Assembly: GCA_963665665.1 (NCBI GenBank)
Contig: OY762428.1
Location: 1,733,200 to 1,797,199, forward strand
DNA length: 64,000 nt
Direction: 5' to 3'
DNA from: Candidatus Kapaibacterium sp.
GTDB taxonomy: Bacteria; Bacteroidota; Ignavibacteria; Kapaibacteriales; UBA2268
Below the pieces are notes generated by a model that was not told the DNA's origin, did not search any database, and saw only the letters and a list, made by a program, of their open reading frames with translations. Below are positions 4,425-25,276 of this stretch, piece by piece. Both the position numbers and the translations under genes were made by a program. How positions within the stretch are numbered: position 1 is the first letter of the stretch; every line of letters begins with the position of its first letter.

Positions 4425-4633
4425 AATCTCAAAAATTCAGGCTTTCGAGACAACCCCGTTGCAAGGGTCGCCATTATGTGATTTGAGAATGTACCAAAAA
4501 TTTTCGTTTCATATCAGATTCTGCCCATAATATATAAAATATTATCTACATCGATTATTAAAATAACAAACTGAAATATGAAAAGTGCCCTGCCTAAATT
4601 GAAGAAAAATTGAAACTATTATAAGAAAAAAAT

Positions 4634-7143: not shown

Positions 7144-7392
7144 AGCACATAACATGTTGTATAAGTAATGGCAGGGAATGTGGTAAACATCAAGGTTTGC
7201 ATTCCGCTTCAACTGCGTAGCTATAGAAAAAATTATTAACATACCCCCCACCCTTATTCCAAAACCGGAGCAAAAGATTGATATGAAAAAGATAGAAGAT
7301 AAAAACACAAGATACTGAACGGCTTCCTTTAAAAAAAACAGCGATTTAAGGTGAAATAATCTTAACTTGCAAAAAATCAAAAGGAGCATCAA

Positions 7393-7680
7393 ATGGCAAA
7401 CAAACGAAGAAATTACAGTTCAAAATTCAAAATGCAGGTAGCCCTGGAGGCAGTCCAAGAGAGAAAAACAATAACCGAGCTGGCATCGGAGTACGGGGTT
7501 CATCCAAACCAGATAAGCATGTGGAAAAAGCATTTAAAAGAAAGTGAAAAGGAAGTATTTGAAAACAAGCGTGGGCCAGGGAAGAATAAAAAAGAAAAAG
7601 ACGAATCAGTATTATATGAAGAAATAGGCCGGCTAAAAATTGAATTAGACTGGTTAAAAAAAAAATTGGGACGTGAGTAA
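7393..7680 (+). CDS. IS3 transposase OrfA (HTH)
   Basis: 95-aa ORF. It ends after the slippery run A10 at 7656-7665 (TTAAAAAAAAAATTGGG). Confidence 0.85.
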   Translation: MANKRRNYSSKFKMQVALEAVQERKTITELASEYGVHPNQISMWKKHLKESEKEVFENKRGPGKNKKEKDESVLYEEIGRLKIELDWLKKKLGRE

Positions 7681-8518
7681 AGAAGAACGCAGGAAGATGG
7701 TAGATGCTGATAATAAAGAAATTAGCATAAGCCGGCAGTGCGAGCTTTTGGGTATTAGCAGGAGCTGTTATTATTACAAACCCAAGGGTGAAAGTGAAGC
7801 AAATATTCTATATATGAAGCTGATCAAAGAACAATTCGCGATTACTCCATTTTATGGAGCCAGAAAAATGACAGCACACTTACGTTCTTTGGGATACCAT
7901 GTTAACTATAAACGAATCAGGCGATTAATGAAATTATTGGGACTTCGGGCAATATATCCCCAACCGGACACGAGCAAACCGAACAAGGAGCACAAAATTT
8001 ATCCATACCTGTTGAGGGATATGAAAATAAGTCGTCCGGATCAGGTTTGGAGCCTGGATATAACATATATTCCGATGCGTAAAGGATTTATGTATCTTAT
8101 AGCAATTATAGATGTTTATAGCAGGTATATCGTCGACTGGGAATTATCGAATAACCTTGAGAAGGAGTTCTGCATAGATACAATAAAAAGGTCTTTGAAA
8201 ACCAGGAAACCGGAAATAACAAACACGGATCAGGGCAGTCAGTTCACGAGCAATGATTTTGTGAAAACGATTCTGGATGCTGATGTTAAGGTAAGCATGG
8301 ACGGCAAGGGCCGCGCCTTGGACAATGTTTACATAGAACGCTTCTGGCGGAGCTTTAAATACGAAGACCTGTATCTGAAGTCTTACGAAGACGGAAAAGA
8401 GCTCTATGGCGGTATAAAGGCTTATGTCGATTGGTATAACAACACGAGGCCGCACGCAGGAATTGAATACCAGATTCCGGCTGAAAAATATATGAACGAA
8501 CAGCGGTTCGTTAATTGA
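7673..8518 (+). CDS. IS3 transposase OrfB (DDE/RNaseH-fold), expressed as OrfAB by -1 frameshift
   Basis: DDE-type motifs VWSLDITYIPM, NTDQGSQFTS and YIERFWRSFKYE. It lies in the -1 frame relative to orfA. Confidence 0.85.
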   Translation: MSKEERRKMVDADNKEISISRQCELLGISRSCYYYKPKGESEANILYMKLIKEQFAITPFYGARKMTAHLRSLGYHVNYKRIRRLMKLLGLRAIYPQPDTSKPNKEHKIYPYLLRDMKISRPDQVWSLDITYIPMRKGFMYLIAIIDVYSRYIVDWELSNNLEKEFCIDTIKRSLKTRKPEITNTDQGSQFTSNDFVKTILDADVKVSMDGKGRALDNVYIERFWRSFKYEDLYLKSYEDGKELYGGIKAYVDWYNNTRPHAGIEYQIPAEKYMNEQRFVN

Positions 8519-8755
8519 AAACTTTGTTGGAAAAGTGAAAAAATGCAATCCGGTAAGCAATTGATAAAAAAAGAAATAGAAAGGAGAGTGAAAGTTATCC
8601 ACAATTTCCAGGTTGTTAACAAAAAGAAAAAAAAGTAGCAAAAAAAAGAAAAATTAATATTATTACATATTTTTTTCTTATTTTATTAGAGAAGAAGTAT
8701 AGATTAATAAACACCATAAACTATACTTTTATTTGTCTAAGCAATAGGGAGCATT

Positions 8756-9673
8756 TCACTTTTCTTCTATATATTTTAATGTTTCATCAATATGTTTTTG
8801 AGGATATTTATCAATTATTTCTTGGGCTTGATTTGGTGTTAAGCAAAAATAATTAATCAATTTATTGTAATGCTCGTAATTATAATTATCACTCAATAAT
8901 AATTCAGCTTTATCTTCTTCCAGTAATATATTATTTGATTTAATATGAAATACTATCTCAACTACTTTTCTTCCCTGTTTCCTTTCAGAAAATGTAAAAT
9001 TTATATCAGTTGTTTCATTTATTTCTCTCTGAGCCTGTTGTAATACTTTTATTTTGAAATTTGAATAATTAGGATATTGACCATCTTTTATCCATATTTT
9101 CTTTTTTAAATCCTCAACCGATATCCTCCTTTTAGCAATTCTTTCATACTGTTTCAGCATTTCATATAATCGTATACTGTAGGTACTTCTTAATCTCAAT
9201 ACATATTTCAATGTAAATTTTGTAAATTTTTCTTTCAATTGTAAAAAATACTTTTGTACATCATTTCCCAATTCTATTACTAAATATCCTTTGTTATTAA
9301 CGTATTTACATTTATTCACCCAATGAAGTTGATAATGATTTTCCCCGTCATCATATTCTATTACTCTGGTCATTAACTGCCGTGATATAGTTCTCATTTC
9401 ACTATAATTATTTTTACTCTTAGTACCTAATATTTCATTCAAATCTTTAATATTTAAGTGGTATTCCTGAAATTTTGTATCACCTTTTTCAATTAATGAT
9501 GCTACAATCAACAATAATCTTTGTTCCTGTAAAGATAACTTATAAGGCATTTCAATTAATTCATTATGCTTTATAATAGTTCGTCTATCATCAATAATTT
9601 TCATTTTAATGACTTTTTTCATATTATTCATTATGTTATAAGACAATATTATCATAAAACAAATTAAATGCAA
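8756..9673 (-). CDS. Plasmid replication initiator protein, Rep_3 family
   Basis: The N-terminus IKHNELIEMPYKLSLQEQRLLLIVASLI matches the Rep_3 signature. The gene is AT-rich and sits directly upstream of the iteron array. Confidence 0.65.
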   Translation of the reverse strand: MHLICFMIILSYNIMNNMKKVIKMKIIDDRRTIIKHNELIEMPYKLSLQEQRLLLIVASLIEKGDTKFQEYHLNIKDLNEILGTKSKNNYSEMRTISRQLMTRVIEYDDGENHYQLHWVNKCKYVNNKGYLVIELGNDVQKYFLQLKEKFTKFTLKYVLRLRSTYSIRLYEMLKQYERIAKRRISVEDLKKKIWIKDGQYPNYSNFKIKVLQQAQREINETTDINFTFSERKQGRKVVEIVFHIKSNNILLEEDKAELLLSDNYNYEHYNKLINYFCLTPNQAQEIIDKYPQKHIDETLKYIEEK

Positions 9674-11030
9674 CTACATTTTATCCACAGTTGCATTTAA
9701 TTTGCCCCAAATTGGTTGCACTTAAAAAAACTCAATCCGGTATGTATACCCCAATGTATAGGTAAAATATTTATTATAATATCTGTAACATATTATATTT
9801 TCACGTATATAACTATTGTTATTTATGAATTCCCCAACTGCAACCAATTTGGGGTGAAACCACTTGCTTTTTTCATTTTCGAGGAATATTTTGGAAAATT
9901 ACTATCATATTCCATATAAAAACGACCTATAACAGACCCAGGTCGCATTAAAATGTCTGCTATACCCCAAATCGGTTGCATTTCGCCCCAAATCGGTTGC
10001 ATTTATTTTTTTATTTCCTTGTTTTAAAAGGGTTTTCTGCATCCTAAAATATATAAAATAATTAAAAGATATAAAACAACAACAACAGAGCATCATCACC
10101 CCAAATCGGTTGCATTTAAAATATTATTCGTTGTTGTTGATTCTTTTTTTCAGAATTAAAATAAGAATAAGAATACTAACTATATAAATATCAACTACTA
10201 CATAAGCCTGTACATAGTATTATAAACACCCGGTATGTATACCCCAATGTACAGACAGAAAGTACGACTAAGTTATTGCTAACAGCAATGATATAACTAT
10301 TTCCCCCGCGCCGGTCGCAAGCTCCCGACTCCCCTCCTTTTCCTGACGGCTCCGCTAACGCTCCGGAGCAAAGTCTAACGACATATTGCCAAAAGGAGGG
10401 GAGCCGGAAGCACGTGTTTGCAAACCGCTCGCTGTCGCTCACGGGCAAGCCACGGCACCGGCGCGGGGGAACTTGTTTAACCCAGTCAGGAAAAGGATTT
10501 CCTTCCCCAATATCCAAATGCAACTAATTTGGGGTCAGGTCGAATATTTAGGCAAGCCTAAACCAAAAATTATTACATCCGAATTCTCAGGCAACAATGT
10601 GATGAAGAAAAGAAAAACAAGAAAAAAAACGAAACCCGACCCACCAAAAAGGTCGCATTATAATCCCGTCGTTCATTATATATTCATTATTAATATTCTA
10701 TGTCTAATTGATTCAATAGTTTAATATGTTTCTATTTTCTTCCTTTCCCCAACTGCAACCAATTTGGGGTGAAACCACGGACAAAAGGATGATCTGCGAC
10801 CAAAAACCAGGCAAACAGTGGCAAACAGGCAGAAAAACAGCAGGAATATTAACAAAAACTAATAAAACTACCAATTTGACCCCAAATCGGTTGCATTTCG
10901 CCCCAAATTAGTTGCATTTAACGTAAAAATCTAAAAAATGACCCCAAATCGGTTGCATTTCGCCCCAAATTAGTTGCATTTAACGCAAAAATGTAAAAAA
11001 TGACCCCAAATCGGTTGCACTTAGAGAAAA
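9665..11030. repeat. Iteron array: at least 12 copies of the 19-bp CCCCAAATCGGTTGCATTT (and variants) in both orientations
   Basis: Copies near 9705, 9838(rc), 9963, 9984, 10099, 10518(rc), 10751(rc), 10882, 10903, 10943, 10964 and 11005. A second repeat, CCGGTATGTATACCCCAATGTA, occurs at 9738 and 10230. Confidence 0.75.
10304..10469. repeat. GC-rich nested long inverted repeat (cruciform/hairpin candidate) within the iteron region
   Basis: CCCCCGCGCCGGT (10304-10316) pairs with ACCGGCGCGGGGG (10457-10469). The inner arms CTCCCCTCCTTTT (10330-10342) and AAAAGGAGGGGAG (10391-10403) also pair. Confidence 0.6.
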
Positions 11031-11049
11031 ATATTACTATTTTAATATC

Positions 11050-12381
11050 GTGAGCCCGGCGAAGCCGGGTCCGGACGCCAGACATTTTAATAAAAAAAAG
11101 AAATTATTTCCCGGCAGAGCCGGGAATAAAACATTTTGTTATAAAAAAGCATCGGGAGATGAGCCTTTGAGGTGGTTTTCTCTAATAACATCGCTTATAG
11201 CGGCGGTATTTTTCTTATACATGTTCCTCCGGGGCATGGCATACTCCGAGATAGAGGAGGCAAGGGCAGAGAAAAGGGCAACCGACAGTATCCTTAACTC
11301 GGAATCAATTCCGGCGCCAGTGGAAGAGGAAAATGTCCCGGAGGGTTTCTTTCGCGTAAGGGGAGGGGCATATAATAACATAAGCATTCTGCGGGGAAAG
11401 ATTGACGGCATGCTGATCGGAAATGCCTGGACAATGACGGACAAGGAAAGGATAACGTCCTTCTGTTACTACTGCGATATCGATACGGACATAAAGCTTC
11501 TTGTAAGCTATTCGCGTTTTCAGCAGTATGAAACAAACGACGCTAAAGTAAAAAAAAGAAAAAAACCGTCTTACCCTTTGTTTACCTGGCTGGAAAAATC
11601 CGATTATTCCTATGTCGGATATAATATGAAAAAGGGCATGGCCCTTATTCTTCCTCCGCAACCGGAATTATATTATATAAGCCGCAGGGACGCTTCGGGA
11701 AGCGAGGACAACATATTAATGCCTGCCATGCGCGACGACAGGAATACGAAGATATACCGTTCCTTCGGCAGTGAGAGAATATCGTTTTTTGCCGCAGAGA
11801 AGGATTTTATGTTCCGCATTAACGAGGCTCCCTGCCGTGAGACGATGAAGTTTATGGATGAGGAAAGAAAATCGGTTTACCTGCTTCCCGGGGAAACTTA
11901 CGATACGGGGCTTTGGACAGACAGGGGGGATCAACTGATAATATTCTTTACAGGAAGCATAAAGGTAAGCTCGTTAAACTACGGGGAAAGGACATACTGG
12001 CCCTGCCATGACGCCGACAATTACCGTTGCAGTCATTATTACTGCCGGGAGGGTCAGGAAGGCTTTATAAGCCTGCACGCCCTTGATTCGTCGGCTCTCC
12101 TTTCAATAGAAATAAAGAGGGGATACGGCGAGAAACTGGACCTTGAACCAGGCAAAGCCGCTTACATGGATTTGTTCGAGGGCGACGAGTTTGTGTTTTT
12201 CTCTAAGTCAAGGTTTTATCTTAACGGCAAATTGCAGGATCCGATATACGGCCATTACAGTGACGCCCTGTGGAGCGGCAAAGGCCGCTTTACCGCCGAC
12301 AGCAACTGCACGGTGGAGATAAGGGCTTCGGTCAATCCTAAAACAATATACATCAGGTCAATAAAAAGAAGGGGTTACTGA
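11050..12381 (+). CDS. Hypothetical membrane-anchored protein, first gene of the GC-rich plasmid operon
   Basis: 443-aa ORF. The true start is probably an internal Met (MFLRGMAYSE...). There is an N-terminal TM segment and no recognisable family. Confidence 0.4.
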   Translation: MSPAKPGPDARHFNKKKKLFPGRAGNKTFCYKKASGDEPLRWFSLITSLIAAVFFLYMFLRGMAYSEIEEARAEKRATDSILNSESIPAPVEEENVPEGFFRVRGGAYNNISILRGKIDGMLIGNAWTMTDKERITSFCYYCDIDTDIKLLVSYSRFQQYETNDAKVKKRKKPSYPLFTWLEKSDYSYVGYNMKKGMALILPPQPELYYISRRDASGSEDNILMPAMRDDRNTKIYRSFGSERISFFAAEKDFMFRINEAPCRETMKFMDEERKSVYLLPGETYDTGLWTDRGDQLIIFFTGSIKVSSLNYGERTYWPCHDADNYRCSHYYCREGQEGFISLHALDSSALLSIEIKRGYGEKLDLEPGKAAYMDLFEGDEFVFFSKSRFYLNGKLQDPIYGHYSDALWSGKGRFTADSNCTVEIRASVNPKTIYIRSIKRRGY

Positions 12382-12382
12382 T

Positions 12383-12697
12383 ATGTTTTTTACGGTATTA
12401 TTCCTTGCCCTCGGGGTATGGATTTTTGACTTAATAACGGGAACGCTGGACTATTATATATTTATAATTTACGCTTTCATGTCCGTTTACCTCGGCATTT
12501 TCTACTTTGCCCGTTATACCACGAGCCGGTCAGAAAAGGCCATATACAACAAATTCACGAATATGGTGGAGGATTTGAGCGACAGGGCTGATTACCTCGA
12601 GGCGAGGAGACAGGGCAGAAACAGGGCGAGAGCCGAGAGCATGTCCGAGATGATAGGCAGACGAAGATTATCGGAGGGAAAAAGATATGAGCGATAA
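12383..12697 (+). CDS. Small membrane protein (2 TM + charged tail)
   Basis: The gene is tightly coupled (2-bp gap) to the upstream gene. It has a hydrophobic N-terminus and an R/E-rich C-terminus. Confidence 0.4.
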   Translation: MFFTVLFLALGVWIFDLITGTLDYYIFIIYAFMSVYLGIFYFARYTTSRSEKAIYNKFTNMVEDLSDRADYLEARRQGRNRARAESMSEMIGRRRLSEGKRYER

Positions 12698-13445
12698 AAA
12701 GTATATAGTAAAGCTTGATCAGGGCGAGTACGATGCCTACCTGAAGATGAGGGAAAGGGGAGACATTCCCTCCGGACTGGTAAGCTCAAGGCGCGGCCCC
12801 TCCGGAGGGCAGCTTATGATAAACATGCCTCCTCCGGAGCCGTCAGGAACGATTATGGGGAACAATTACCAGGGAAAGAGGCTGGACTCCTACAACAGCC
12901 TTTTGAACAGGTACATGAACCTTATAAACGGTTTTATGAAGCTTGAGAGGCTTTATCACAAGTATGAGAATATAGAAAAATATTTCTACAGCGACGACCT
13001 TGATATAGAGATAGAAATAAAACATAAGGAAAATTATTTAAACAGCCTTACCGAATCATATAAAACAACGGTAAGCGACGAGGAGCTTAAAAGAAAAATG
13101 AACTCCTATAAGATGGAACTGGCAGACATAAGGCTTGAGGAAAGACGCCTTAAACTACAGGCAAAGGGGGAGAAAGAGGAAATGACTGCTGCCGAGAGTT
13201 ACCGTCGCGAGCAGGAGGAAAAGCTTGAACTGGAAGCCATAAAGGCAGAGTACAGCCGCAAAAGGGAGAGGATGAAGCTTGAGGAAAGGCTGGCAAACAG
13301 GAGGGAGCTTGACGAATATTTTATGAAGATGTCGGAGAGTATTTTAAAGGGCAGGACAGCGGAGGAATTAAGCCCGAGGGAAAGAACCGATTACGAGAAC
13401 CTTGAGGACGAGTATAATGCCTGCTTCGGAAGGGATTTTGAGTAG
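12687..13445 (+). CDS. Charged coiled-coil protein
   Basis: The start overlaps the upstream gene. The E/K/R-rich heptad-like C-terminal half indicates a coiled coil. Confidence 0.45.
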   Translation: MSDKKYIVKLDQGEYDAYLKMRERGDIPSGLVSSRRGPSGGQLMINMPPPEPSGTIMGNNYQGKRLDSYNSLLNRYMNLINGFMKLERLYHKYENIEKYFYSDDLDIEIEIKHKENYLNSLTESYKTTVSDEELKRKMNSYKMELADIRLEERRLKLQAKGEKEEMTAAESYRREQEEKLELEAIKAEYSRKRERMKLEERLANRRELDEYFMKMSESILKGRTAEELSPRERTDYENLEDEYNACFGRDFE

Positions 13446-13448
13446 TTT

Positions 13449-15215
13449 ATGAAAAAAAGCGGAATAGTTCTCGGAAAGGACAATAATGGCAATGATGTAT
13501 TCATGCCTGCCAAAACCAGGTCAACGCACATGCACGTGATAGGATCCACGGGAACGGGAAAATCAAAATTTTTCGAGAGCATGATAAGGCAGGATATATT
13601 AAACCGCCAGGGGCTTTGCCTTATAGACCCTCACGGTTATCTTTTCCATGACATAATAAGGTGGTGCGAGACCATGGGCCTGAGGAACGGCAGGCTTGCA
13701 AAGAACATTGTTTTGCTGGATCCGTCTGCCGACGGATGGGCCTTCGGTTTTAATCCGCTTCGCGGAGGAAGCTGCGAGATAAGCTATCACGTGGATACTA
13801 TGGTAAAAGCCGTAAGCAAGGTATGGGGAGGAGAGAACTCCGACAGGACGCCGCTTCTTAAAAGAGCTTTAAGAAGCATCTTTCACGTTCTTGCCGAGAA
13901 CGAGCTTTCATTGCTCGAGGGGAGGTTTTTAATCGATCCCGTACATGCGGAAACAAGAAAGAAACTGACGGAAAACATCAGCGACCCGGTAATAAAACAG
14001 CAGTGGGATTATTTTAACGAGCTTAAGCCCAAGCCTTTTTACGACGAGTTTGGCTCGACCATTAACAGGCTCATGGAATTTTTTTCATCTCCCCTTATAC
14101 GGGCAATGATAGGGCAGACCGAAAAAGTCATAGACTTTCGGTCAGTAATGGACGAGGGAAAGGTAGTCCTTGTAAACCTGTCGTCCTCCGACCGCGTTTC
14201 CCCGGACAATGCCCGTCTGCTCGGCTCTCTGATTGTTAACGACCTTTTTATGAGGGCTATGGGAAGGCCCGAGGGAAGCAGGCCTTTTTATTTGTACATT
14301 GACGAGTGCAGCCTTTTTGTAAACGAGGATATAGAGCGCATACTCAACGAGGGACGTAAGTTCGGCCTTCACCTTATCCTTGCCCACCAGCAGCTTAAGC
14401 AGTTAAAGAAACAGGCCGGGGAGGGCGTCTATGACGCCGTTATGGGAAGCGCAAAGACAAAGGTGATATTCGGAGGGCTGTCTTATGAAGACGCCGAGGT
14501 CATGGCCAACCAGGTATTCCTCGGTGAGATAGACCTCGAGGAGGGTAAGAAATCCCTTCGCAGGAAAGCCGTCACTGGCCAGGTAAGGATATGGATGAAA
14601 AGCATGTCTGAGGGTGAGAGTGAAAGCACGGGCAGGGGGGAGGCAGACTCCTGGTCGGAGACGGAGACGACAAGCACAGGGGATTCTTCTTCTGCATCAT
14701 TGACTTTCCATGAATCGGGCCTTGTAAGAAGCCAGGGAAGCGGCATGAGCAGCGGGGAGAGCTTTTCCACGTCAAGCTCAAAGAGCGTCAGCAGTTTTAG
14801 TTCCGAGGGGAAAAACAGGAGTAATGGCATAAGAGAGAGTTTTCAGAATGTATATACCGAGCAGGAGGGAGGCCTGTTTTCTTTAGAGGAGCAGAGGTAT
14901 AAGAAGATGGCGGTAATGGTAAACCAGGAGCCGAGGCAGGCGGTGGTAAAACTGCCTGCAAAGAGGAGTAATGTCATAGAAACGCCTTTTGTAAGGGAGG
15001 GCATAGCAAGGCGTGAGAGGGTGGAAAGATTTAAGCGCGAATGCTTCGGGAGCGAGGATTTTGCCATGACGCGAAAGGACGCTGAAAGGCTTATTGACGA
15101 GAGGCATGGCAGGCTTACAGCCGGGGAAGCGCCGGAAAACGAGGAGGAAATCACCGGGCTGACGGATTTTGAGATAGTGGACGATATTCCGGATAGCTGG
15201 AAAGATCTGAAATAA
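13449..15215 (+). CDS. T4CP-like (TraD/TrwB/VirD4, FtsK-HerA superfamily) P-loop ATPase with Ser/Glu-rich C-terminal tail
   Basis: Walker A (IGSTGTGKS) is followed by LIDPHGY, as in the coupling-protein DPKGE box. Walker B is YLYIDECSLF. There is no N-terminal TM segment. Confidence 0.55.
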   Translation: MKKSGIVLGKDNNGNDVFMPAKTRSTHMHVIGSTGTGKSKFFESMIRQDILNRQGLCLIDPHGYLFHDIIRWCETMGLRNGRLAKNIVLLDPSADGWAFGFNPLRGGSCEISYHVDTMVKAVSKVWGGENSDRTPLLKRALRSIFHVLAENELSLLEGRFLIDPVHAETRKKLTENISDPVIKQQWDYFNELKPKPFYDEFGSTINRLMEFFSSPLIRAMIGQTEKVIDFRSVMDEGKVVLVNLSSSDRVSPDNARLLGSLIVNDLFMRAMGRPEGSRPFYLYIDECSLFVNEDIERILNEGRKFGLHLILAHQQLKQLKKQAGEGVYDAVMGSAKTKVIFGGLSYEDAEVMANQVFLGEIDLEEGKKSLRRKAVTGQVRIWMKSMSEGESESTGRGEADSWSETETTSTGDSSSASLTFHESGLVRSQGSGMSSGESFSTSSSKSVSSFSSEGKNRSNGIRESFQNVYTEQEGGLFSLEEQRYKKMAVMVNQEPRQAVVKLPAKRSNVIETPFVREGIARRERVERFKRECFGSEDFAMTRKDAERLIDERHGRLTAGEAPENEEEITGLTDFEIVDDIPDSWKDLK

Positions 15216-15230
15216 TGTATTATAATTTAA

Positions 15231-16208
15231 TTGTTATTTATAATATTTTATTTATTAATAATATTTATGGCGGAAAGAAGAAGAAAAAAATTTAAGCCGG
15301 ATCCATCTGTATCCTTCCAGTTGCAGGAAAGGGACGTTGACATTATTCACGACGTTTATACTCACCGCTTCTTAGACACTTCCCTTATCACTCTCAAGAC
15401 GGGCGCAAGCCGCCAGGCAGTGCAACGCCGCCTTAACAAGCTCTATCATAATGGCTACCTGTCCCGTCCCGGAACGCAGAGGACGCGCCAGGGAAACAAC
15501 AGCATGGTCTATGCCCTCGGCAACGAGGGGGCGCGCCTGCTTGCCCGGCGCTATGACTATGACATAGAGCGTCAGAACTGGGCGTGTAAGAACAGGGAGA
15601 GCAAGAACGACTATCTTGACCACAGCCTTATGACGGCGCGTTTTCTTATCCTTGCCGAAGTGTTTTGTAAGACATACGCCAATAAGATTGATTTTATTCC
15701 CGCCCGTGAAATGATAAGCAAAAGGCCCGTTCCGGCTAAGGAGAGGTTTAACCCCCTGTCCTGGAGAGTGGAGGGAAAGGCTTTTCCGGAGTACAAGGGT
15801 TCTGTCGTTCCCGACGGAGCCTTCGGGCTTAAGTATGCCCTGAAGGACGGCAGGAAGATGGAGAAGTATTTTTTTATCGAGGCAGACCGTTCCACAATGC
15901 CTGTTAAGAGGAATAACCTTAACAGGTCTTCATATTTTAAAAAGCTTATTGCCTATTGGGAAAGCTTTGACCAGGGACTTTTTGAAAAGTACTGGGGTTT
16001 TAAGTCAGCAAGAGTCCTGACCCTTACCCTGTCTGTCGAGCGTTCCCGCAATATCCAGGCTGCCTGCCGGGAGCTTGACAGGAAAGGCCGCGGCCTGGGG
16101 CTTTTCCTCTTTGCTCCCGAAGCGGTCTTCAGGCATGAAGATGTTAAGACCTTTATAGGAAGGAACTGGATATCAGGTGCAGGGAAACAGGTCTCGGTCG
16201 TGGAGTGA
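15231..16208 (+). CDS. Replication-relaxation family protein (putative relaxase-like/DNA-processing wHTH protein)
   Basis: The N-terminal wHTH-like region (DVDIIHDVYTHRFLDTSLITLKTGASRQAVQRRLNKLYHNGYL) resembles the Replic_Relax family. The gene is adjacent to a T4CP-like ATPase. Confidence 0.45.
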   Translation: MLFIIFYLLIIFMAERRRKKFKPDPSVSFQLQERDVDIIHDVYTHRFLDTSLITLKTGASRQAVQRRLNKLYHNGYLSRPGTQRTRQGNNSMVYALGNEGARLLARRYDYDIERQNWACKNRESKNDYLDHSLMTARFLILAEVFCKTYANKIDFIPAREMISKRPVPAKERFNPLSWRVEGKAFPEYKGSVVPDGAFGLKYALKDGRKMEKYFFIEADRSTMPVKRNNLNRSSYFKKLIAYWESFDQGLFEKYWGFKSARVLTLTLSVERSRNIQAACRELDRKGRGLGLFLFAPEAVFRHEDVKTFIGRNWISGAGKQVSVVE

Positions 16209-16360
16209 ATATTTGCCTGAAGCGCTATGTTCCTGCTTTTCCTTTGCTCCTGTTAAGACATATTTTGCTTTTATCATGCTGAAATTTGATATGATTTTGA
16301 GTTGTAAGTTGTAATTCCGGCCTGTTTCTGACCGTTTATGGCTATGCACATATATGTAAC

Positions 16361-16439
16361 ATTAATTGCACTGTTATTGCACTGTTATTGCACTGTTATT
16401 GCACCGTTATTGCACCGTTATTGCACTGTTATTGCACTG
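16361..16439. repeat. Tandem repeat of 11 bp, TTATTGCAC(T/C)G, 7 copies
   Basis: Read directly: ttattgcactg x3, ttattgcaccg x2, ttattgcactg x2. Confidence 0.85.
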
Positions 16440-16699
16440 GTTGTTCTTTGTCTGTGTCGTGATATGTATCCGGTATTTGACAATCACTGAACAATCACTG
16501 CAAACAGTATCGCATAGCAGAAAACAGGCAGATTAATACAATGCAAAAGGCAATAAACAAGCAAATAATTGTTTCCCGGATCAATATGGAGCATCAATAT
16601 ACGATCAGACAAGTACCCGAAAACATCAATTTTTTACATTTTTTAATTATGTGCGGGCTAATTTTGTAAGCTGTCGCAACCATGTACCGCCGGGCGTAA

Positions 16700-16969
16700 T
16701 TATCGTTTGTTTTTCCATTCTTCCGGTTTATAATCCAGGTTGATGAATTCCTCTGCTTTTTCTTTATTGAAACTGTAGAGCTTAGAATATCCTTTGTCAC
16801 CGACGGGCCTTGTGCCGCTTACAAGCATCCACGAAGGCTTATATTCTTCTATCCATGCCATTTCCTCGTCGGTAAACAGGTTGTTATTCCGGCAAAGGCT
16901 GCATTTTCTTTTAAACTTATTGAATTCTCTTATGTTCATAGATAAAAACCCTGTAAAATATAATGTCAT
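16700..16969 (-). CDS. Hypothetical small protein
   Basis: 89-aa ORF in an AT-rich region with no recognisable domain. Confidence 0.2.
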   Translation of the reverse strand: MTLYFTGFLSMNIREFNKFKRKCSLCRNNNLFTDEEMAWIEEYKPSWMLVSGTRPVGDKGYSKLYSFNKEKAEEFINLDYKPEEWKNKR

Positions 16970-17394
16970 TAACGTTTGAAAGAAATATTATTGAATAATA
17001 ACAATCGAAAATATGCTTTTGTTTCAGATAGTAATTGAATGATTGTATTAATTATCAACAGAATATATTTAAGGCATTGAAAAATATTCCTTAATGTTAT
17101 ATAATTTTCATGCCGCGCGCCGCCGATGCCACGCCGGATAAAAAACACCTACCAGGGGGCTGCCTTAGGACAGGGGCGGCCCCGAATAAAAGTTTTTTCC
17201 AATAAGCGGCGGCTCTCCCTGACGGGTTCCCTGCCAAAAAAAAAGGCGGGAGGGTAGCCGGGCTTATCCGCTCCTTGACGAACCCGCCTGTATAATGGGC
17301 GATAGGCCGGTATCACCACTAAAAGGCCGCGGCAAAAAGAAAAACGGCATCCTGCATCAAAATAATGCGGGGCGCCGTTTTAATTGCCCGGAAA

Positions 17395-18444
17395 TCATAT
17401 TCGGAGCAACTTTTTAATATCCTCATCTTTTAAAAGGTGAGGTTTTTTTGCGTAAGGCATTGGCGTTATCGCCCTGACAAAGAAATGCTCCGAGAGCTCC
17501 TGCGTCCACTGTTTTCGGGCTTTAAGTCCGGGTTCGTCGTGATCGGCTATAATTAGAACTCTTGCCGAGGGGCTCAAAACAGCCCTCAGGAGGCTTTTTT
17601 GTTCAATTGCAAGGTTTGTACCCATCAGAGCCGCAACGTCCCTGTATCCCGCCCTGGCGAGCCTCAGGACGGACATAAAGCTCTCTGTGAGGATCAGTTT
17701 TTCGGCTCCGTCTTTGATCTTATGGATGTTATAGATTTCCGCATTCTTTTTAAAGCCCTCAGGAAACTTGTATTTTCCTTCCAGTTCGGCCTGCTCACGT
17801 GTCACGGCCCTGCCGCAGTAAGCGACAAGCTCGCCTTTCCTGTTTCTTATCGGTATGACAATTCTGCCGGACATAAGGCCTTTATTGCAGAAACCAAGCC
17901 CAAACTCCCTGATGATATTTTTGGGTATTCCTCTTTCGCTAAAGAATGGATGTTTATTGTCTAAGTTTTTCAGTTCGAATGTCAGGGGCTCGTTAGAGCT
18001 TGTTTCCGCTTTTTCTTCACTGGTTTGAGTATTGTCCTCCTGTGGCGCATTCATGAACCATCCCTGCAGGAGCAGGGCAGCTTCATGAAAGCTTATTCTT
18101 TCCATGTTCTTTACGAAGTCGATTACGTTGCCGCCGCCCTTACACTTGCCGAAGCAATTGTATATTCCTTTGTCAATGTTTACGGAGAACTGCCTGTCAT
18201 TGCTTCCCCCGTGTACGGGGCAGCAACCGGTCAGGTTTTGTCCTGATTTTTTTAACTTTTCAAGGAGGCCGTAGCGGGAGAGAACATCCCTAAAGTTTAC
18301 GGTCGCTTTTAGCTCGCGGTAGTCAACCCATTGTTTCTTTTCTGTCATGATTATGCCTTTCTTTTTTTTAAAGGAACTTTTTTCTTTAATACTAGCCCGG
18401 TAAGTGATTTTAGTAAAGGGCAGGCCTTCAGGCTGATAATGCAT
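17395..18444 (-). CDS. DNA primase, DnaG-like (CHC2 zinc finger + TOPRIM)
   Basis: CHC2 zinc finger (CCPVHGGSNDRQFSV...CFGCKGGG) and TOPRIM motifs (LILTESFMSVL, VLIIADHDEPG). The true start is probably the internal Met at 18348 (MTEKKQW). Confidence 0.75.
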   Translation of the reverse strand: MHYQPEGLPFTKITYRASIKEKSSFKKKKGIIMTEKKQWVDYRELKATVNFRDVLSRYGLLEKLKKSGQNLTGCCPVHGGSNDRQFSVNIDKGIYNCFGKCKGGGNVIDFVKNMERISFHEAALLLQGWFMNAPQEDNTQTSEEKAETSSNEPLTFELKNLDNKHPFFSERGIPKNIIREFGLGFCNKGLMSGRIVIPIRNRKGELVAYCGRAVTREQAELEGKYKFPEGFKKNAEIYNIHKIKDGAEKLILTESFMSVLRLARAGYRDVAALMGTNLAIEQKSLLRAVLSPSARVLIIADHDEPGLKARKQWTQELSEHFFVRAITPMPYAKKPHLLKDEDIKKLLRI

Positions 18445-18453
18445 TTTAGCGTC

Positions 18454-18516
18454 AGCTTAGCCATGTCAACCTCGTACAAGTCTCCAAATTGACAAAGGCC
18501 ACAGCGATCAGCCGCT
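18454..18516. repeat. 63-bp direct repeat, copy 1 (partner at 19033-19096, about 90% identical)
   Basis: The sequence agcttagccatgtcaacctcgtacaagtctccaaattgacaaaggccacagcgatcagccgct contains the inverted hexamers TGTCAA...TTGACA. Confidence 0.7.
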
Positions 18517-18593
18517 TTGTATGTCTTATCATCCTGAAGCTCAGAGCGCCGTTTCAGTCATGATTTTTTAATTAAAGGCGTTCAAAAAAAAAT

Positions 18594-18902
18594 ATGAGTA
18601 ATCTTAAAAATTACTTTCCGGGAGTTTTTATCACTACCGGAATACATGAACTTGCGCGATCAAAGGAATGTTTCTGGCTCCTTGACCTTATCGTGTCTTA
18701 CCAGGCACATCCCGTTGTCGGTAAAGAACCATTTCAGTCTTACAGGCTAAAGGTCAATCCGGACGAATCCGCAACGCTTACCGTTACCGACGGCAATGAC
18801 AATGTCCTTGCCGAAAGGAAAATACCCTGGACTGATTTTGCGGGTTCTGCGCTTACCGTCTGGTGCGTTGATAAAATCATTTTGTTGCCTTCTGAATACT
18901 GA
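18594..18902 (+). CDS. Hypothetical protein
   Basis: 102-aa ORF flanked by the 63-bp direct repeats. Confidence 0.3.
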   Translation: MSNLKNYFPGVFITTGIHELARSKECFWLLDLIVSYQAHPVVGKEPFQSYRLKVNPDESATLTVTDGNDNVLAERKIPWTDFAGSALTVWCVDKIILLPSEY

Positions 18903-19032
18903 AGGCAACATTTTCTTTTTTTTATAAAGGCAGCTCAATGGAGCTTTTTGTTAATTATTCCGGGGAGCGCAAGTCTTTACTTTATGCTTTTATAACCCCT
19001 TTTGTGCCCGTCGGAATCCTCATTATAGCGGC

Positions 19033-19096
19033 AGCTTAACCGTGTCAACCTCGTACGGAGTCTCCAAATTGACAAAGGCCAGAGCGATCAGCCGCT
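19033..19096. repeat. 63-bp direct repeat, copy 2
   Basis: agcttaaccgtgtcaacctcgtacggagtctccaaattgacaaaggccagagcgatcagccgct. Confidence 0.7.
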
Positions 19097-19366
19097 GTAT
19101 TCGGGGCTTGCCGACAGGTAACAAACACGGCGTTACCGGCAGGCGGATATAAATAAAAGCCGTGAACAATAACTTTATGAACAAAGTTCAAAAAGAGAAG
19201 CATGAAAATGTTTCCGAAGCAAAACAGGATTTTCTGAAAAAACAGGAGATCATCAGAAAGCAGATCAAAGCCCGATGGGGCGAAAGGGATGAACGGCTTC
19301 CTTTAAAAAAAACAGCGATTTAAGGTGAAATAATCTTAACTTGCAAAAAATCAAAAGGAGCATCAA

Positions 19367-19654
19367 ATGGCAAACAAACGAAGAAATTACAGTTCAAAAT
19401 TCAAAATGCAGGTAGCCCTGGAGGCAGTCCAAGAGAGAAAAACAATAACCGAGCTGGCATCGGAGTACGGGGTTCATCCAAACCAGATAAGCATGTGGAA
19501 AAAGCATTTAAAAGAAAGTGAAAAGGAAGTATTTGAAAACAAGCGTGGGCCAGGGAAGAATAAAAAAGAAAAAGACGAATCAGTATTATATGAAGAAATA
19601 GGCCGGCTAAAAATTGAATTAGACTGGTTAAAAAAAAAATTGGGACGTGAGTAA
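19367..19654 (+). CDS. IS3 transposase OrfA
   Basis: Protein identical to copy 1 OrfA. Confidence 0.85.
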   Translation: MANKRRNYSSKFKMQVALEAVQERKTITELASEYGVHPNQISMWKKHLKESEKEVFENKRGPGKNKKEKDESVLYEEIGRLKIELDWLKKKLGRE

Positions 19655-20492
19655 AGAAGAACGCAGGAAGATGGTAGATGCTGATAATAAAGAAATTAGC
19701 ATAAGCCGGCAGTGCGAGCTTTTGGGTATTAGCAGGAGCTGTTATTATTACAAACCCAAGGGTGAAAGTGAAGCAAATATTCTATATATGAAGCTGATCA
19801 AAGAACAATTCGCGATTACTCCATTTTATGGAGCCAGAAAAATGACAGCACACTTACGTTCTTTGGGATACCATGTTAACTATAAACGAATCAGGCGATT
19901 AATGAAATTATTGGGACTTCGGGCAATATATCCCCAACCGGACACGAGCAAACCGAACAAGGAGCACAAAATTTATCCATACCTGTTGAGGGATATGAAA
20001 ATAAGTCGTCCGGATCAGGTTTGGAGCCTGGATATAACATATATTCCGATGCGTAAAGGATTTATGTATCTTATAGCAATTATAGATGTTTATAGCAGGT
20101 ATATCGTCGACTGGGAATTATCGAATAACCTTGAGAAGGAGTTCTGCATAGATACAATAAAAAGGTCTTTGAAAACCAGGAAACCGGAAATAACAAACAC
20201 GGATCAGGGCAGTCAGTTCACGAGCAATGATTTTGTGAAAACGATTCTGGATGCTGATGTTAAGGTAAGCATGGACGGCAAGGGCCGCGCCTTGGACAAT
20301 GTTTACATAGAACGCTTCTGGCGGAGCTTTAAATACGAAGACCTGTATCTGAAGTCTTACGAAGACGGAAAAGAGCTCTATGGCGGTATAAAGGCTTATG
20401 TCGATTGGTATAACAACACGAGGCCGCACGCAGGAATTGAATACCAGATTCCGGCTGAAAAATATATGAACGAACAGCGGTTCGTTAATTGA
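19647..20492 (+). CDS. IS3 transposase OrfB
   Basis: Protein identical to copy 1 OrfB. Confidence 0.85.
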   Translation: MSKEERRKMVDADNKEISISRQCELLGISRSCYYYKPKGESEANILYMKLIKEQFAITPFYGARKMTAHLRSLGYHVNYKRIRRLMKLLGLRAIYPQPDTSKPNKEHKIYPYLLRDMKISRPDQVWSLDITYIPMRKGFMYLIAIIDVYSRYIVDWELSNNLEKEFCIDTIKRSLKTRKPEITNTDQGSQFTSNDFVKTILDADVKVSMDGKGRALDNVYIERFWRSFKYEDLYLKSYEDGKELYGGIKAYVDWYNNTRPHAGIEYQIPAEKYMNEQRFVN

Positions 20493-20857
20493 AAACTTTG
20501 TTGGAAAAGTGAAAAAATGCAATCCGGTAAGCAATTGATAAAAAAAGAAATAGAAAGGAGAGTGAAAGTTATCCACAATTTCCAGGTTGTTAACAAAAAG
20601 AAAAAAAAGTAGCAAAAAAAAGAAAAATTAATATTATTACATATTTTTTTCTTATTTTATTAGAGAAGAAGTATAGATTAATAAACACCATAAACTATAC
20701 TTTTATTTGTCTAAGCAATAGGGAGCATTTCACTCAGCAGATCTGTGGAATTTCATTACAAAAGATAATTTAACAGCAGAAGATTCTTTTGGATTTACAA
20801 CACCAAGGAGCCTATCAAAATCAATTAGAAAAAAAGATTAGAAAAGGATAATCGAAA

Positions 20858-21232
20858 ATGATATCAAAAAAAATTATATTTTGTATAATATTCATCATAG
20901 TAAATATGGCAAAATTAGCATCAACAGATAATCTTAATGAAGATTACATTGGTATTTGTAAAATATCAAAAGACACAATCAGAATTGATTATTTTAGTTC
21001 TGTGCATGGTATTTCAAAAGTTTGTACTAAAATTAACGGTGATACACTAAACCTTAATCTTTTAGTAAGAGTTGGCAAGAAGCAAGATAGTCATTTCATT
21101 AAAATAAATGAAAATATAAAAGTTATATCAACTGGAAATATTAAATATTATGTTAATGATTTGGATTCATGTGGACAATTATATGAGGGAATTGATGCAA
21201 TAGAATATCTAAAAAAGCAAAGAACTGAATAA
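20858..21232 (+). CDS. Small secreted hypothetical protein
   Basis: 124-aa ORF with an N-terminal hydrophobic signal-like segment. Confidence 0.35.
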   Translation: MISKKIIFCIIFIIVNMAKLASTDNLNEDYIGICKISKDTIRIDYFSSVHGISKVCTKINGDTLNLNLLVRVGKKQDSHFIKINENIKVISTGNIKYYVNDLDSCGQLYEGIDAIEYLKKQRTE

Positions 21233-21417
21233 TTTATTATCCACTTTATCCCCCCGCCCTTCGGGGCGGGGATATATAAAGATCAATAACTGATGTATCC
21301 TTAATCATAAGAAAAAAGAGTTAAGGAATGGAGGATTGTTAAGGTTAAATGTTAGAGTTAACATCCACTGCTAAATCATTGGTTATTTTAATTTACTAAT
21401 TAATTTTGGAGGTTGCC

Positions 21418-22023
21418 ATGAAATCAGGCAAAGGAATTTTTATTGTTCTTGCAGTAATTTTGTTTTCGTATTTAAACATGCAGGCTGACTGTTATTATCC
21501 CTACCAGCAGTATTCATTCACCGGAAATTATGACGGTTGTGAATATATCTGCTACATTTGTTCAAAAACTGATTCGACATATCCGTTTGATCAGACATCA
21601 TATATCGATAGGATCGAAGTTTTGAATATTAACTGTTCCGACATGTTTGAAGATCCCTTATTCTGGGAAGAAGTAAATGAGAATGTTCTGTTAACTTTAA
21701 TGAATGATGCAAGCTGGCCGCCCTGCAGTAATGAAACTTATGAGTTTCTTATAAAAAGCGCACGATGCTGGAAGATTATTCATGACCATGTCGATAATAT
21801 GCTCACAATGAAAAATTGCGGGTATGATGCTTATTGCCTCAGTACTTATGAAGTATGTACCGATTATAACAAAAATCCGCCGGAAAACAAATGGACAATG
21901 ATTGGTAAATCAGTTATTAGTACTCCGGGATGTTCCGGAAACGGAGTTCCCGATTTACCTCCTTCGGGCAAAACCTGGAGTCAGGATTGGGAAACAGACT
22001 GCTTTATATTAGATTGCTATTAA
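21418..22023 (+). CDS. Cysteine-rich secreted hypothetical protein
   Basis: ATG at 21418 is preceded by GGAGG. The protein has a signal peptide and many Cys residues. Confidence 0.4.
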   Translation: MKSGKGIFIVLAVILFSYLNMQADCYYPYQQYSFTGNYDGCEYICYICSKTDSTYPFDQTSYIDRIEVLNINCSDMFEDPLFWEEVNENVLLTLMNDASWPPCSNETYEFLIKSARCWKIIHDHVDNMLTMKNCGYDAYCLSTYEVCTDYNKNPPENKWTMIGKSVISTPGCSGNGVPDLPPSGKTWSQDWETDCFILDCY

Positions 22024-22092
22024 TTTATTAATTTTCGTCATCCATCCGTATATTTGTACGGATGGATGATTTATTATTATTTTGGTTAGACT

Positions 22093-24327: not shown

Positions 24328-24390
24328 AGTAGTGATAAGCAGGACGTTCCAGAAATAAATATTAGTTTACATAAGATAGATTATAATGCA

Positions 24391-24420
24391 AAATCCGGGA
24401 AGATTTTTCCGGATTTTGTT
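24391..24420 (+). terminator. Rho-independent terminator
   Basis: Hairpin tccgggaagatttttccgga followed by a T-run, downstream of the 744-aa gene. Confidence 0.6.
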
Positions 24421-24988
24421 CGTTTTGTGGCCGCCGTTGACGCATGCCGACGGCCAGCGGCAGCCAACTACGAAAAATGACGAGCTGCGACGCAAAAATT
24501 ACTCTCCGGAGAGAATTCCTTCATAAATTAGTCGTTTTCAGGAAAAATTTCCGGAAATTGTCCCATCCCAGAGGCTATTTCTAAAAACGACCGCCATAAA
24601 TCGCTTCTAAGGGGTTTTTATTTTTAGATTCGGTTGATGTATGGTAATTTTTGAAACGAGGCATCGCTTGACAACAATCTTATAATGATGTAATGTTTGC
24701 TAATGTTCTTTTTACAATAATATAATAGGTGTACAATGTATTCTAAAAATAATTCTCAATCAAATTCAAATTATGGCATTTGGTTTGTGATAATAGCATT
24801 AGTTTCAATAAACATCATTGCTTTTGGTTTTTTATCCTATTACCTTTCTTACTGGTTTATTGTTTTAGTTTCAATCCAATTTCTTTATTTTTCTTTTTTT
24901 AAAAGGAAATCTGAACGGCTTCCTTTAAAAAAAACAGCGATTTAAGGTGAAATAATCTTAACTTGCAAAAAATCAAAAGGAGCATCAA

Positions 24989-25276
24989 ATGGCAAACAAA
25001 CGAAGAAATTACAGTTCAAAATTCAAAATGCAGGTAGCCCTGGAGGCAGTCCAAGAGAGAAAAACAATAACCGAGCTGGCATCGGAGTACGGGGTTCATC
25101 CAAACCAGATAAGCATGTGGAAAAAGCATTTAAAAGAAAGTGAAAAGGAAGTATTTGAAAACAAGCGTGGGCCAGGGAAGAATAAAAAAGAAAAAGACGA
25201 ATCAGTATTATATGAAGAAATAGGCCGGCTAAAAATTGAATTAGACTGGTTAAAAAAAAAATTGGGACGTGAGTAA
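24989..25276 (+). CDS. IS3 transposase OrfA
   Basis: Protein identical to copy 1 OrfA. Confidence 0.85.
   Translation: MANKRRNYSSKFKMQVALEAVQERKTITELASEYGVHPNQISMWKKHLKESEKEVFENKRGPGKNKKEKDESVLYEEIGRLKIELDWLKKKLGRE

Follow-up and report, generated by a model that had tools for sequence, protein, structure and literature searches.

A 64,000-nucleotide stretch of Candidatus Kapaibacterium sp. DNA (contig OY762428.1, positions 1,733,200 to 1,797,199; hereafter, the window) was analyzed with regard to a segment that lies between two copies of an insertion sequence (IS). The segment is probably a fragment of a Rep_3 plasmid that has become fixed in the chromosome between directly repeated IS copies, and its operon is probably a MOB_C-type DNA-transfer module. 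The operon encodes two membrane proteins (p404 and p104), a coiled-coil protein (p252), a P-loop ATPase resembling type IV coupling proteins (T4CPs), and a relaxase-like protein, and it stands beside the plasmid replication origin (oriV), inside which we found a conserved structured DNA element. Judged by sequence comparison, the module appears to be a deep, unstudied branch of the known MOB_C plus T4CP kind. Its distinctive features are a motor that lacks a transmembrane domain (TMD), conserved but unclassified partner proteins, and a new covarying cis element.

The operon encodes a coupling-protein-like ATPase and a MOB_C-type relaxase-like protein

The open reading frames (ORFs) described in the sequence-only reading of this DNA were all present where it had placed them, and profile searches for the Rep_3, TrwB_AAD_bind, Replic_Relax, and Toprim/zf-CHC2 families all gave matches. 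The fourth gene of the operon (13449-15215, + strand) encodes a T4CP-like P-loop ATPase of 588 aa of the VirD4/TrwB/TraD type. Coupling-protein signatures had been recognized in it by eye, and the Pfam results bore this out: TrwB_AAD_bind matched at 3.8e-14 (52.8 bits; cut-off, 20.5) and TraG-D_C at 7.9e-8 (32.7 bits; cut-off, 22), with T4SS-DNA_transf at 18.6 bits, just under its cut-off of 20.1. In the comparison of the ATPase profile with the PDB, the best matches were TrwB and DotL, ahead of DptH and HerA. The Walker A and Walker B residues were invariant in 34 homologues. No transmembrane (TM) segment was predicted in the ATPase or in any of the 34 family members; Walker A begins at about residue 32, and the C-terminal tail is Ser/Thr-rich and acidic. 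More than 1500 homologues were found, typically about 50% identical and mostly on small metagenome contigs. In PLSDB, 47 of the 50 plasmids encoding a distant relative of the ATPase were typed 'non-mobilizable' by MOB-suite; on one of these 50, Geobacillus pGspE55-1, a replication-relaxation gene adjoins the ATPase gene.

The last gene of the operon (15267-16208, + strand) encodes a MOB_C-type (Replic_Relax, PF13814) relaxase-like protein. Its ORF is readable from 15231 (325 aa), and the likely start lies 12 codons downstream, giving 313 aa. The Replic_Relax match (3.5e-21; 76.6 bits against a cut-off of 25.3) agreed with the earlier proposal of a replication-relaxation protein with a winged helix-turn-helix (wHTH) domain beside the ATPase, and PF13814 was matched in 39 of 39 homologues. 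With hhalign, a profile of 58 relaxase-like sequences aligned with a Geobacillus replication-relaxation protein (probability 97%, E 7.7e-11) and with TraX of pAM373 (probability 83%, E 8.5e-6, 186 columns). A relative of the window relaxase was detectable on just one plasmid in PLSDB.

Across the 58 sequences, residues H131, P194-D195, and E217 were invariant, and D219 (56/58) and K238 were nearly so. These residues fall on a PD...ExD motif, and the His, PD, and ExD positions align with the Geobacillus protein. The AlphaFold2 (AF2) model of the relaxase had a mean predicted local distance difference test score (pLDDT) of 93.9, and its order of secondary-structure elements was compatible with the PD-(D/E)XK fold. 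Foldseek matched only the wHTH part of the model: the N-terminal domain hit ArsR/MarR-type wHTH proteins and the centromere-binding protein AspA of pNOB8, with target-normalized TM-scores of 0.55-0.70. The NCBIfam HTH matches of the protein were Sta1 and Lrs14. We read the protein as an N-terminal winged helix joined to a predicted PD-(D/E)XK-type nuclease domain.

PF13814 has been placed in the PD-(D/E)XK nuclease superfamily and is the domain called MOB_C by CONJscan; TraX of pAD1 and MobC of CloDF13 serve as its studied prototypes. In TraX, a winged helix at the N terminus accompanies an active site like that of restriction enzymes; the protein binds five direct repeats at a distance of 70-120 bp from nic, and a covalent DNA intermediate was not detected for it. 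The ATPase-relaxase pair is thus no unclassified oddity: PF13814 is MOB_C, and both CloDF13 and pAD1/pAM373 have a T4CP with MOB_C after it.

The partner proteins accompany the ATPase and the relaxase in related loci

Three genes precede the ATPase gene. The first ORF is readable from 11050 as a 443-aa protein (p443), whereas the likely start lies 39 codons downstream; the database gene call (P0121) has 404 aa and would begin at 11167 (p404; 11167-12381, + strand). This membrane-anchored all-beta protein has one predicted TM segment, and its AF2 model (pLDDT 81) contains a TM helix and beta domains. Foldseek gave no meaningful fold match for p404, and only about 30 remote homologues were found among 1.84 billion representatives. 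The second gene encodes p104 (12383-12697, + strand), a small protein with two predicted TM helices and a charged tail, for which PADLOC returned only HmaA, at 0.007. The third encodes the coiled-coil protein p252 (12687-13445, + strand), whose family stands directly upstream of the ATPase in 37 loci, with conservation limited to the C-terminal ~90 residues. None of the three proteins matched a family in the Pfam, NCBIfam, or PHROG scans, and the earlier statement that they belong to no recognizable family thus stands.

Related loci were collected from species-representative genomes (10 loci) and from metagenomes (79 loci) and are numbered with the prefix L where they are named below. The named hosts, all metagenome-assembled genomes (MAGs), were Patescibacteria, Deltaproteobacteria, Competibacter, Caulobacteraceae, Ignavibacteriales, Roseobacter, Acetothermia, and Binatia. 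Across about 90 loci, the gene order was membrane protein(s), coiled-coil protein, ATPase, and relaxase, beside oriV. Of the 92 loci with an ATPase match, 75 had a relaxase-like gene, mostly directly downstream on the same strand, and most of the relaxase-less loci end at a contig edge.

A membrane protein was encoded upstream of the p252 family in most loci, and in 12 of 15 it was a single multi-TM protein of 260-530 aa. In L002, L017, and L018, a split form was observed that consists of a single-TM protein of about 400 aa belonging to the p443 family, thus positional homologues of p443/p404, and a two-TM protein of 141-156 aa homologous to the C-terminal part of the long multi-TM form, as represented by proteins of 336-529 aa in the equivalent place in 12 other loci. 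The p104 protein was not detectably similar to its positional equivalents (E 0.25), so its equivalence rests on position. We propose that p104 is a detached membrane anchor for the TMD-less ATPase. The partner proteins matched no Pfam family in any of the loci. In other plasmids, positional counterparts or homologues of the upstream genes accompany the ATPase-relaxase pair.

The neighboring cargo of the related loci consisted mostly of restriction-modification and defense genes, plus RPA initiators. No strong match to a VirB4-type ATPase of a type IV secretion system (T4SS) was found among 47 large neighboring proteins within +/-10 kb, as judged from the 25 most frequent of the 49 Pfam families matched, as expected for mobilizable rather than conjugative elements.

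One pair of records departs from this pattern. In L003/L007 (single amplified genome AM-312-K06 of Patescibacteria, JBHPIX010000020.1), an ATPase homologue 55% identical to that of the window is preceded by only the 98-aa C-terminal part of the p252 family, and the relaxase, the primase, and the structured element are absent. This copy, which stands in a chromosomal context, may be decayed or repurposed.

A covarying three-helix DNA element lies within the iteron field

The region upstream of the operon is an iteron field (oriV; 9705-11022) in which the 19-bp unit CCCCAAATCGGTTGCATTT occurs 12 times, in both orientations. Within the 64 kb, these copies were confined to this interval, and 0.06 copies were expected from shuffles. 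The last copy ends 28 bp ahead of the 443-aa ORF. Further repeat families (D3-D5) were found in the field, and 21-22-bp arrays occupy the equivalent place in about 20 related loci.

In the middle of this AT-rich field, a GC-rich patch of about 170 nt (10301-10471, + strand) forms a three-helix structured element, with a DNA fold z of -6.6 compared with shuffles. The outer stem P1 pairs CCCCC..GTCG with CGAC..GGGGG. The P2 hairpin starts with GCTCCCGAC and ends with GTCGGGAGC; its stem differs between loci and stays complementary. The P3 hairpin is formed by CGATTTTG...CAAAATCG. RNAalifold analysis of 12 loci yielded 48 consensus pairs, 33 of which had compensatory double changes. A standard pair was formed in 89.1% of the cells, compared with 69.2% in shuffles and 40-54% when the partners were slid, and 111 cells were changed on both sides, compared with 34 in shuffles; none of 500 shuffles reached the observed value of any measure. 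Wobble pairs were rare (about 4% of cells) and were mostly T-G on the + strand, which suggests that folding takes place in this strand.

A sequence hidden Markov model (HMM) searched with nhmmer detected the element in 34 loci, once per locus and always on the operon strand. In every case it preceded the operon, mostly at a distance of 1.9-3.2 kb from the ATPase start; its length was about 170-250 nt, and it occurred with both Rep_3-type and RPA-type initiators. Examples are L009 7223-7404, L019 7740-7942, L046 6756-6975, L057 5634-5821, L063 7195-7361, and L066 4113-4307. Among the three close relatives (the window and two contigs, L001 and L098), the element was 100% identical. Rfam contained no match to it, and a literature string search for its motifs returned only unrelated papers. 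These patterns point to a conserved cis element of the family, one that the sequence-only reading had not singled out. Separately, a scan of a viral collection with the pattern GTCGGGAGCN{55,85}GCTCCGAC gave 106 matches, none of which was confirmed by the HMM, so all were attributed to chance.

A plasmid-encoded primase was considered together with the element. The DnaG-like primase of the segment (349 aa; 17395-18444, - strand) matched Zn_ribbon_DnaG (CHC2), DNAG_N, and Toprim in Pfam, NCBIfam dnaG at 8.8e-45, and the PHROG DNA primase family at 1.4e-52, in agreement with the CHC2-TOPRIM primase described earlier; it lacks a helicase-binding domain. A DnaG-like primase was encoded in 29 related loci, mostly a few kilobases downstream on the opposite strand. 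Among loci with enough flanking sequence, a primase was present in 11 of the 12 that have the element and in one of the five that lack it, a comparison that is confounded by relatedness, the mean ATPase identity being 50% with the element and 37% without it.

By analogy with known systems, the element is probably either an origin of transfer (oriT) or a single-strand initiation site for the primase, and we regard it as a candidate for both roles, with oriT slightly ahead. The oriT reading is based on the resemblance to the MOB_C oriT of pAM373/pAD1, in which about five short direct repeats lie next to an inverted repeat of about 145 nt, and on the fact that the element travels with the relaxase operon rather than with a given initiator. 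The primase-site reading is based on the position of the element inside oriV and on its co-occurrence with the primase.

The segment is a partial copy of a larger plasmid bounded by IS ends

The rest of the 64-kb window encodes MreB, MreC, YidC, a SurA-like chaperone, MscS, and many proteins with the Por_Secre_tail domain, the sorting domain of type IX secretion system (T9SS) cargo. Because of this gene content, the window is taken to be chromosomal DNA of a bacterium of the Fibrobacteres-Chlorobi-Bacteroidetes (FCB) group.

Three copies of a 1443-bp IS3-family element were identified, as had been reported for the flanks of the segment. Copy 1 (7316-8758, + strand; orfA 7393-7680, orfB 7673-8518) forms the left junction and truncates the replication initiator gene, copy 2 (19290-20732, + strand) forms the right junction, and copy 3 (24912-26354) lies beyond it. 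Copies 1 and 2 were 100% identical and directly oriented, and copies 1 and 3 were 99.9% identical. The profile matches of copy 1 were rve, HTH_21, and rve_3, and the ends of the element read TGAACGGCTTCC.../...GGGAGCATTTCA.

Two metagenome contigs carry free relatives of the segment: L001 (48,347 bp; ena:ERZ21831104:ctg95346c) and L098 (40,819 bp; ena:ERZ21869602:ctg85232l). The ending 'c' in the name of L001 is, we assume, the mark of a circular contig in hifiasm output. L001 matched the window at 98% over 10044-19289, and L098 matched at 99.8% over 8758-10003 (L098 4926-6171) and at 96% over 10745-19289. The similarity begins at the last base of IS copy 1 and stops at 19289, the base before IS copy 2; by this alignment, the interval between the two copies corresponds to a single collinear stretch of a plasmid of the L098 type. 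Beyond the part that they share with the window, both L001 and L098 encode a resolvase (serine recombinase) and a second DUF6876 paralogue, and L001 also carries a ParA-type partition ATPase. On these comparisons, positions 8759-19289 would represent about 10.5 kb of a 40-48-kb plasmid type, of which only about a quarter was captured. Megablast of the whole segment against PLSDB gave no match.

The truncated gene at the left junction encodes a Rep_3 initiator (8756-9673, - strand) with full-coverage matches to Rep3_N (1.3e-37; 129.8 bits, cut-off 22.4) and Rep3_C (3.7e-20; 72.4 bits, cut-off 21.1). Together with the 12 iterons, this result upheld the earlier description of a Rep_3 initiator with a 1.3-kb iteron field. 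The ORF is there as described; its 3' end, however, is missing, and its stop codon is the terminal TGA of IS copy 1. The WH1 and WH2 domains are complete, and the C-terminal ~150 residues were lost to the IS: the protein has 305 aa in the window, compared with 442 aa in L098 (gene 4471-5799) and 440 aa in L001. The window Rep was 43% identical to that of L001, in an alignment that ends at residue 288 of 440. No complete initiator gene therefore remains, about 150 codons being absent, and the segment is chromosomal. The sequence-only reading had spoken of a mobilizable plasmid captured between IS copies. The part that holds is that a Rep_3 iteron-type segment sits in the chromosome; what is present is a fragment and not the whole plasmid, since the initiator is incomplete and the resolvase of the relatives and the partition ATPase of L001 are absent.

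By comparison with L001, the captured genes are intact. No indels were found in the eight genes compared, which differ from those of L001 by 59 synonymous and 13 non-synonymous codons. The synonymous differences were concentrated in the relaxase (26) and the primase (27), whereas the p404, p252, and DUF6876 genes were identical; this clustering suggests patchwise recombination among plasmid variants.

The GC content rises from about 25-30% at rep and the iterons to 44-52% in the operon. This step had been noticed before and is real. Its explanation as a chimera formed at integration was rejected, because L001 likewise has a low-GC rep beside a high-GC operon; the mosaic thus belongs to the plasmid lineage and is no product of the integration.

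Both junctions lie exactly at IS ends, which makes IS-mediated capture the natural route and supports the earlier view that insertion proceeded by way of the IS copies with no integrase. No target-site duplication was found at the flanks of any single IS copy (copy 1 is flanked by TAC and CTT), and the outer flanks of the composite differ (TAC left of copy 1 and CTC right of copy 2). The left flank of copy 1 and the right flank of copy 3 are both TAC, a 3-bp match with a chance of about 1 in 10 over the possible comparisons. It is a weak hint that everything between copies 1 and 3 arrived by IS-IS recombination. The insertion itself is ordinary, and the chromosomal piece is most likely a stranded remnant whose genes are still intact.

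Comparison with known mobilization and replication systems

In pAD1 and pAM373 of Enterococcus faecalis, the T4CP gene traW is followed by the gene for the PF13814 relaxase TraX, the same order as in the window. MOB-suite types pAM373 as MOBC, and its TraX is annotated as a 'replication-relaxation family protein'. TraX and the window relaxase both combine an N-terminal winged helix with a restriction-endonuclease-like catalytic domain, which is predicted in the case of the window. The similarity between the proteins of these plasmids and those of the window is detectable by profile methods only. The oriT2 of pAD1/pAM373 has direct repeats and an inverted repeat of about 145 nt, and the window has a large conserved inverted-repeat structure and short-period direct repeats. 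In pAM373, however, the inverted repeat directly adjoins the repeats, and both are located between the T4CP and relaxase genes, whereas in the window the structured element is upstream of the operon and an 11-bp array is 5.9 kb away. TraW has 737 aa and, like most T4CPs, an N-terminal membrane domain, in contrast to the window ATPase. Both enterococcal plasmids are self-transmissible and encode a full Gram-positive T4SS, and none was seen in the window.

CloDF13 belongs to a rare class of mobilizable plasmids that encode their own coupling protein, and it is of the MOB_C1 type. This non-conjugative plasmid uses its relaxase MobC, its own T4CP MobB, and a foreign pore; the logic is the same as that proposed here, a likeness drawn from its description. 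The three-helix TMD of MobB is essential for mobilization, whereas the window ATPase has no TMD and separate membrane proteins are encoded upstream of it. The replicons also differ, being ColE1-like in CloDF13 and Rep_3 with iterons in the window.

T4CPs that lack a TMD and pair with a separate membrane protein are a recognized class, exemplified by TraJ/TraI of pIP501, and the 'DNA translocation operon' proposed for the phages 0305phi8-36 and SPO1 encodes a MobC-type relaxase, a TMD-less VirD4-like ATPase, and putative membrane anchors. In pIP501, in the phage operon, and, by prediction, in the window, a soluble VirD4-like ATPase leans on another protein for membrane attachment. Given these precedents, the split architecture is a variant and not a new principle. 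The partners found here (p404, p104, p252, and the multi-TM family) have no relationship to TraI or to the proteins of the phage operon, whose own role is an inferred one.

The oriV of IncQ plasmids (RSF1010) contains iterons and a large inverted repeat with the primase sites ssiA and ssiB, and priming sites of the G4 type are multi-hairpin single-stranded DNA elements. RSF1010 and the window thus share iterons beside a large structured inverted repeat and a plasmid-encoded primase. The IncQ primase is of the RepB' type, whereas that of the window is of the DnaG type (CHC2 and TOPRIM), and the element has no sequence relation to the known sites.

Proposed mechanism and alternative explanations

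We propose the following sequence of events for the free plasmid. The wHTH-nuclease relaxase would bind and nick the transfer origin, for which the element at 10301-10471 is the best candidate. A hexamer of the ATPase, probably held at the membrane by p404 and p104 with p252 as a coiled-coil adaptor, would then dock the nucleoprotein complex to a conjugative pore that a different element provides. Finally, the plasmid primase would prime the complementary strand.

Several findings weigh against this interpretation. The NCBIfam T4CP models scored far under their curated cut-offs, the best being TIGR03743 with 51.5 bits against 366, and the ATPase also matched PADLOC mad8 (2.5e-20, over most of the profile), DndH, and HerA. 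The link of the relaxase to the prototypes is weak: hhalign to TraX reached only 83%, and pairwise BLASTP against TraX was not significant. The tie between p104 and the membrane-protein family is one of position. No helper pore was found in the window or near the relatives, in sequence that included all but about 26 kb of L001. Transfer and nicking are activities that we infer for this branch, and two regularities, the constant place of the operon next to oriV and the association of the element with the primase (11/12 compared with 1/5), fit a role in replication or maintenance equally well.

A broader proposal is that the module and the ~170-nt element make up a plasmid DNA-processing system that is distinct and is widespread among uncultivated bacteria; this system would have a new type of transfer or priming origin of its own and may move DNA with no classical T4SS. 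Its hosts would include Patescibacteria, Ignavibacteriales, Binatia, Acetothermia, and several proteobacterial groups. We consider this unlikely, though worth keeping in view.

The same loci could instead be read as an origin-processing or maintenance module, in which the nuclease nicks or resolves the element at oriV, the primase primes there, and the ATPase and its partners translocate or segregate DNA. In every case the operon directly adjoins the iterons, with Rep_3 and RPA initiators alike; the iteron field contains the element, which co-occurs with the primase; IncQ oriV and G4-type sites offer precedents; and PHROG gave a weak match to 'replication initiation by nicking'. However, the plasmids already encode a full initiator, L001 has its own ParA-type ATPase, and both L001 and L098 have a resolvase. 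The best profile and structure matches of the ATPase are coupling proteins, the PF13814 prototypes with experimental data are conjugative relaxases, and the primase correlation is confounded by the relatedness described above. We judge such a role to be unlikely.

It is still less likely that the operon is a self-sufficient minimal translocation apparatus that works with no classical T4SS, like the FtsK-like TraB of Streptomyces plasmids. The four-component order is kept across about 90 loci in many phyla, with MAG hosts that include Patescibacteria; no strong T4SS ATPase match was found within +/-10 kb of any locus; and the membrane partners are conserved and uncharacterized. The T4SS scan, however, was confined to that distance and to the Pfam families given above, and the known class of mobilizable plasmids that encode a T4CP of their own depends on a helper pore. 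The likely host is diderm, and no outer-membrane component is encoded. In addition, conservation of the membrane partners is poor, and these proteins are even split or replaced from one locus to another, which fits an anchor better than a channel.

An anti-phage or anti-plasmid defense cassette, composed of a HerA/DndH/mad8-like ATPase and a PD-(D/E)XK nuclease effector, is very improbable: the mad8, DndH, and HerA matches, the nuclease-like partner, and the restriction-modification and defense genes in the neighboring cargo of related loci are in its favor, but the other window proteins scanned with PADLOC matched no mad, Dnd, or other defense-system profile, the pair is a backbone feature fixed beside oriV with a cis element and not variable cargo, the nuclease is a member of a Pfam relaxase family with a wHTH domain, and the best solved structures for the ATPase are TrwB and DotL.

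The transfer module that we favor has consequences beyond this genome. Standard plasmid typing misses this branch and may under-call the class, with 47 of the 50 PLSDB plasmids typed 'non-mobilizable'; if the module is a working MOB_C mobilization system, many environmental plasmids counted as non-transmissible would be mobilizable. How MOB_C relaxases pass DNA to the pore with no covalent intermediate is an open question in the field, and a separable anchor, adaptor, motor, and nuclease, together with a sharply defined covarying cis element, would make a tractable system for the MOB_C mechanism. The genome itself provides a case in which IS copies have stranded a plasmid fragment, with intact transfer genes and a candidate oriT, in a chromosome. 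Such a fragment could in principle drive Hfr-like (high-frequency-of-recombination) mobilization of neighboring chromosomal DNA.

Other features of the segment and the window

Downstream of the relaxase gene, a tandem array with the 11-bp unit ATTGCACTGTT occupies 16365-16439 (+ strand; 6.8 copies with 96% match in TRF). The seven copies noted earlier are therefore present, and the array is not conserved beyond three close relatives, with a copy number of seven in the window, eight in L001, and six in L098. The fold of this region was not significant (z = +0.5). The array may serve to bind protein. Its interpretation as a conserved binding site for the relaxase was rejected, since 55 of 57 loci lack it downstream of the relaxase gene.

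A 89-aa ORF at 16700-16969 (- strand) was found at 99% identity in L001 only and matched no family in the Pfam, NCBIfam, or PHROG scans. Between this ORF and the primase gene, there is a second GC-rich patch (17110-17400), which includes a terminator-like hairpin just downstream of the primase stop codon. The patch at 17110-17330 was considered as a second copy of the structured element and rejected (no HMM match; fold z = -2.0).

The gene at 18594-18902 (+ strand) encodes a 102-aa DUF6876 protein (PF21781, 1.3e-30), and a literature string search found no mention of DUF6876. The region of this gene is flanked by a 75-bp direct repeat (18442-18516 and 19021-19096; 89-97% identity). One copy lies just upstream of the primase start and the other near the junction with IS copy 2, and the repeat is visible in L001 and L098 as well.

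Beyond the right junction, the region between IS copies 2 and 3 spans 20733-24911. In view of the shared TAC flanks, the whole block of 7316-26354, with the gene for a 744-aa T9SS-sorted BNR-repeat protein inside it, may be a single IS-bounded unit that was acquired or rearranged together.

To the left of the segment, a lone gene for a phage terminase large subunit (4634-6025, + strand) matched TIGR01630 at 2.2e-18 and a T7-type terminase at 7e-14. It sits in an island of 58-59% GC, compared with about 40% for the window, just to the left of a beta-lactamase-family gene and IS copy 1, and it may be a prophage remnant. Farther to the right, a tandem duplication of about 1.5 kb with 97% identity was observed (41687-43203 and 43083-44621), each copy of which contains an ORF of about 214-221 aa with no Pfam family; additional repeats of about 200 bp occur at 41470-41671, 41741-41934, and 43137-43330.

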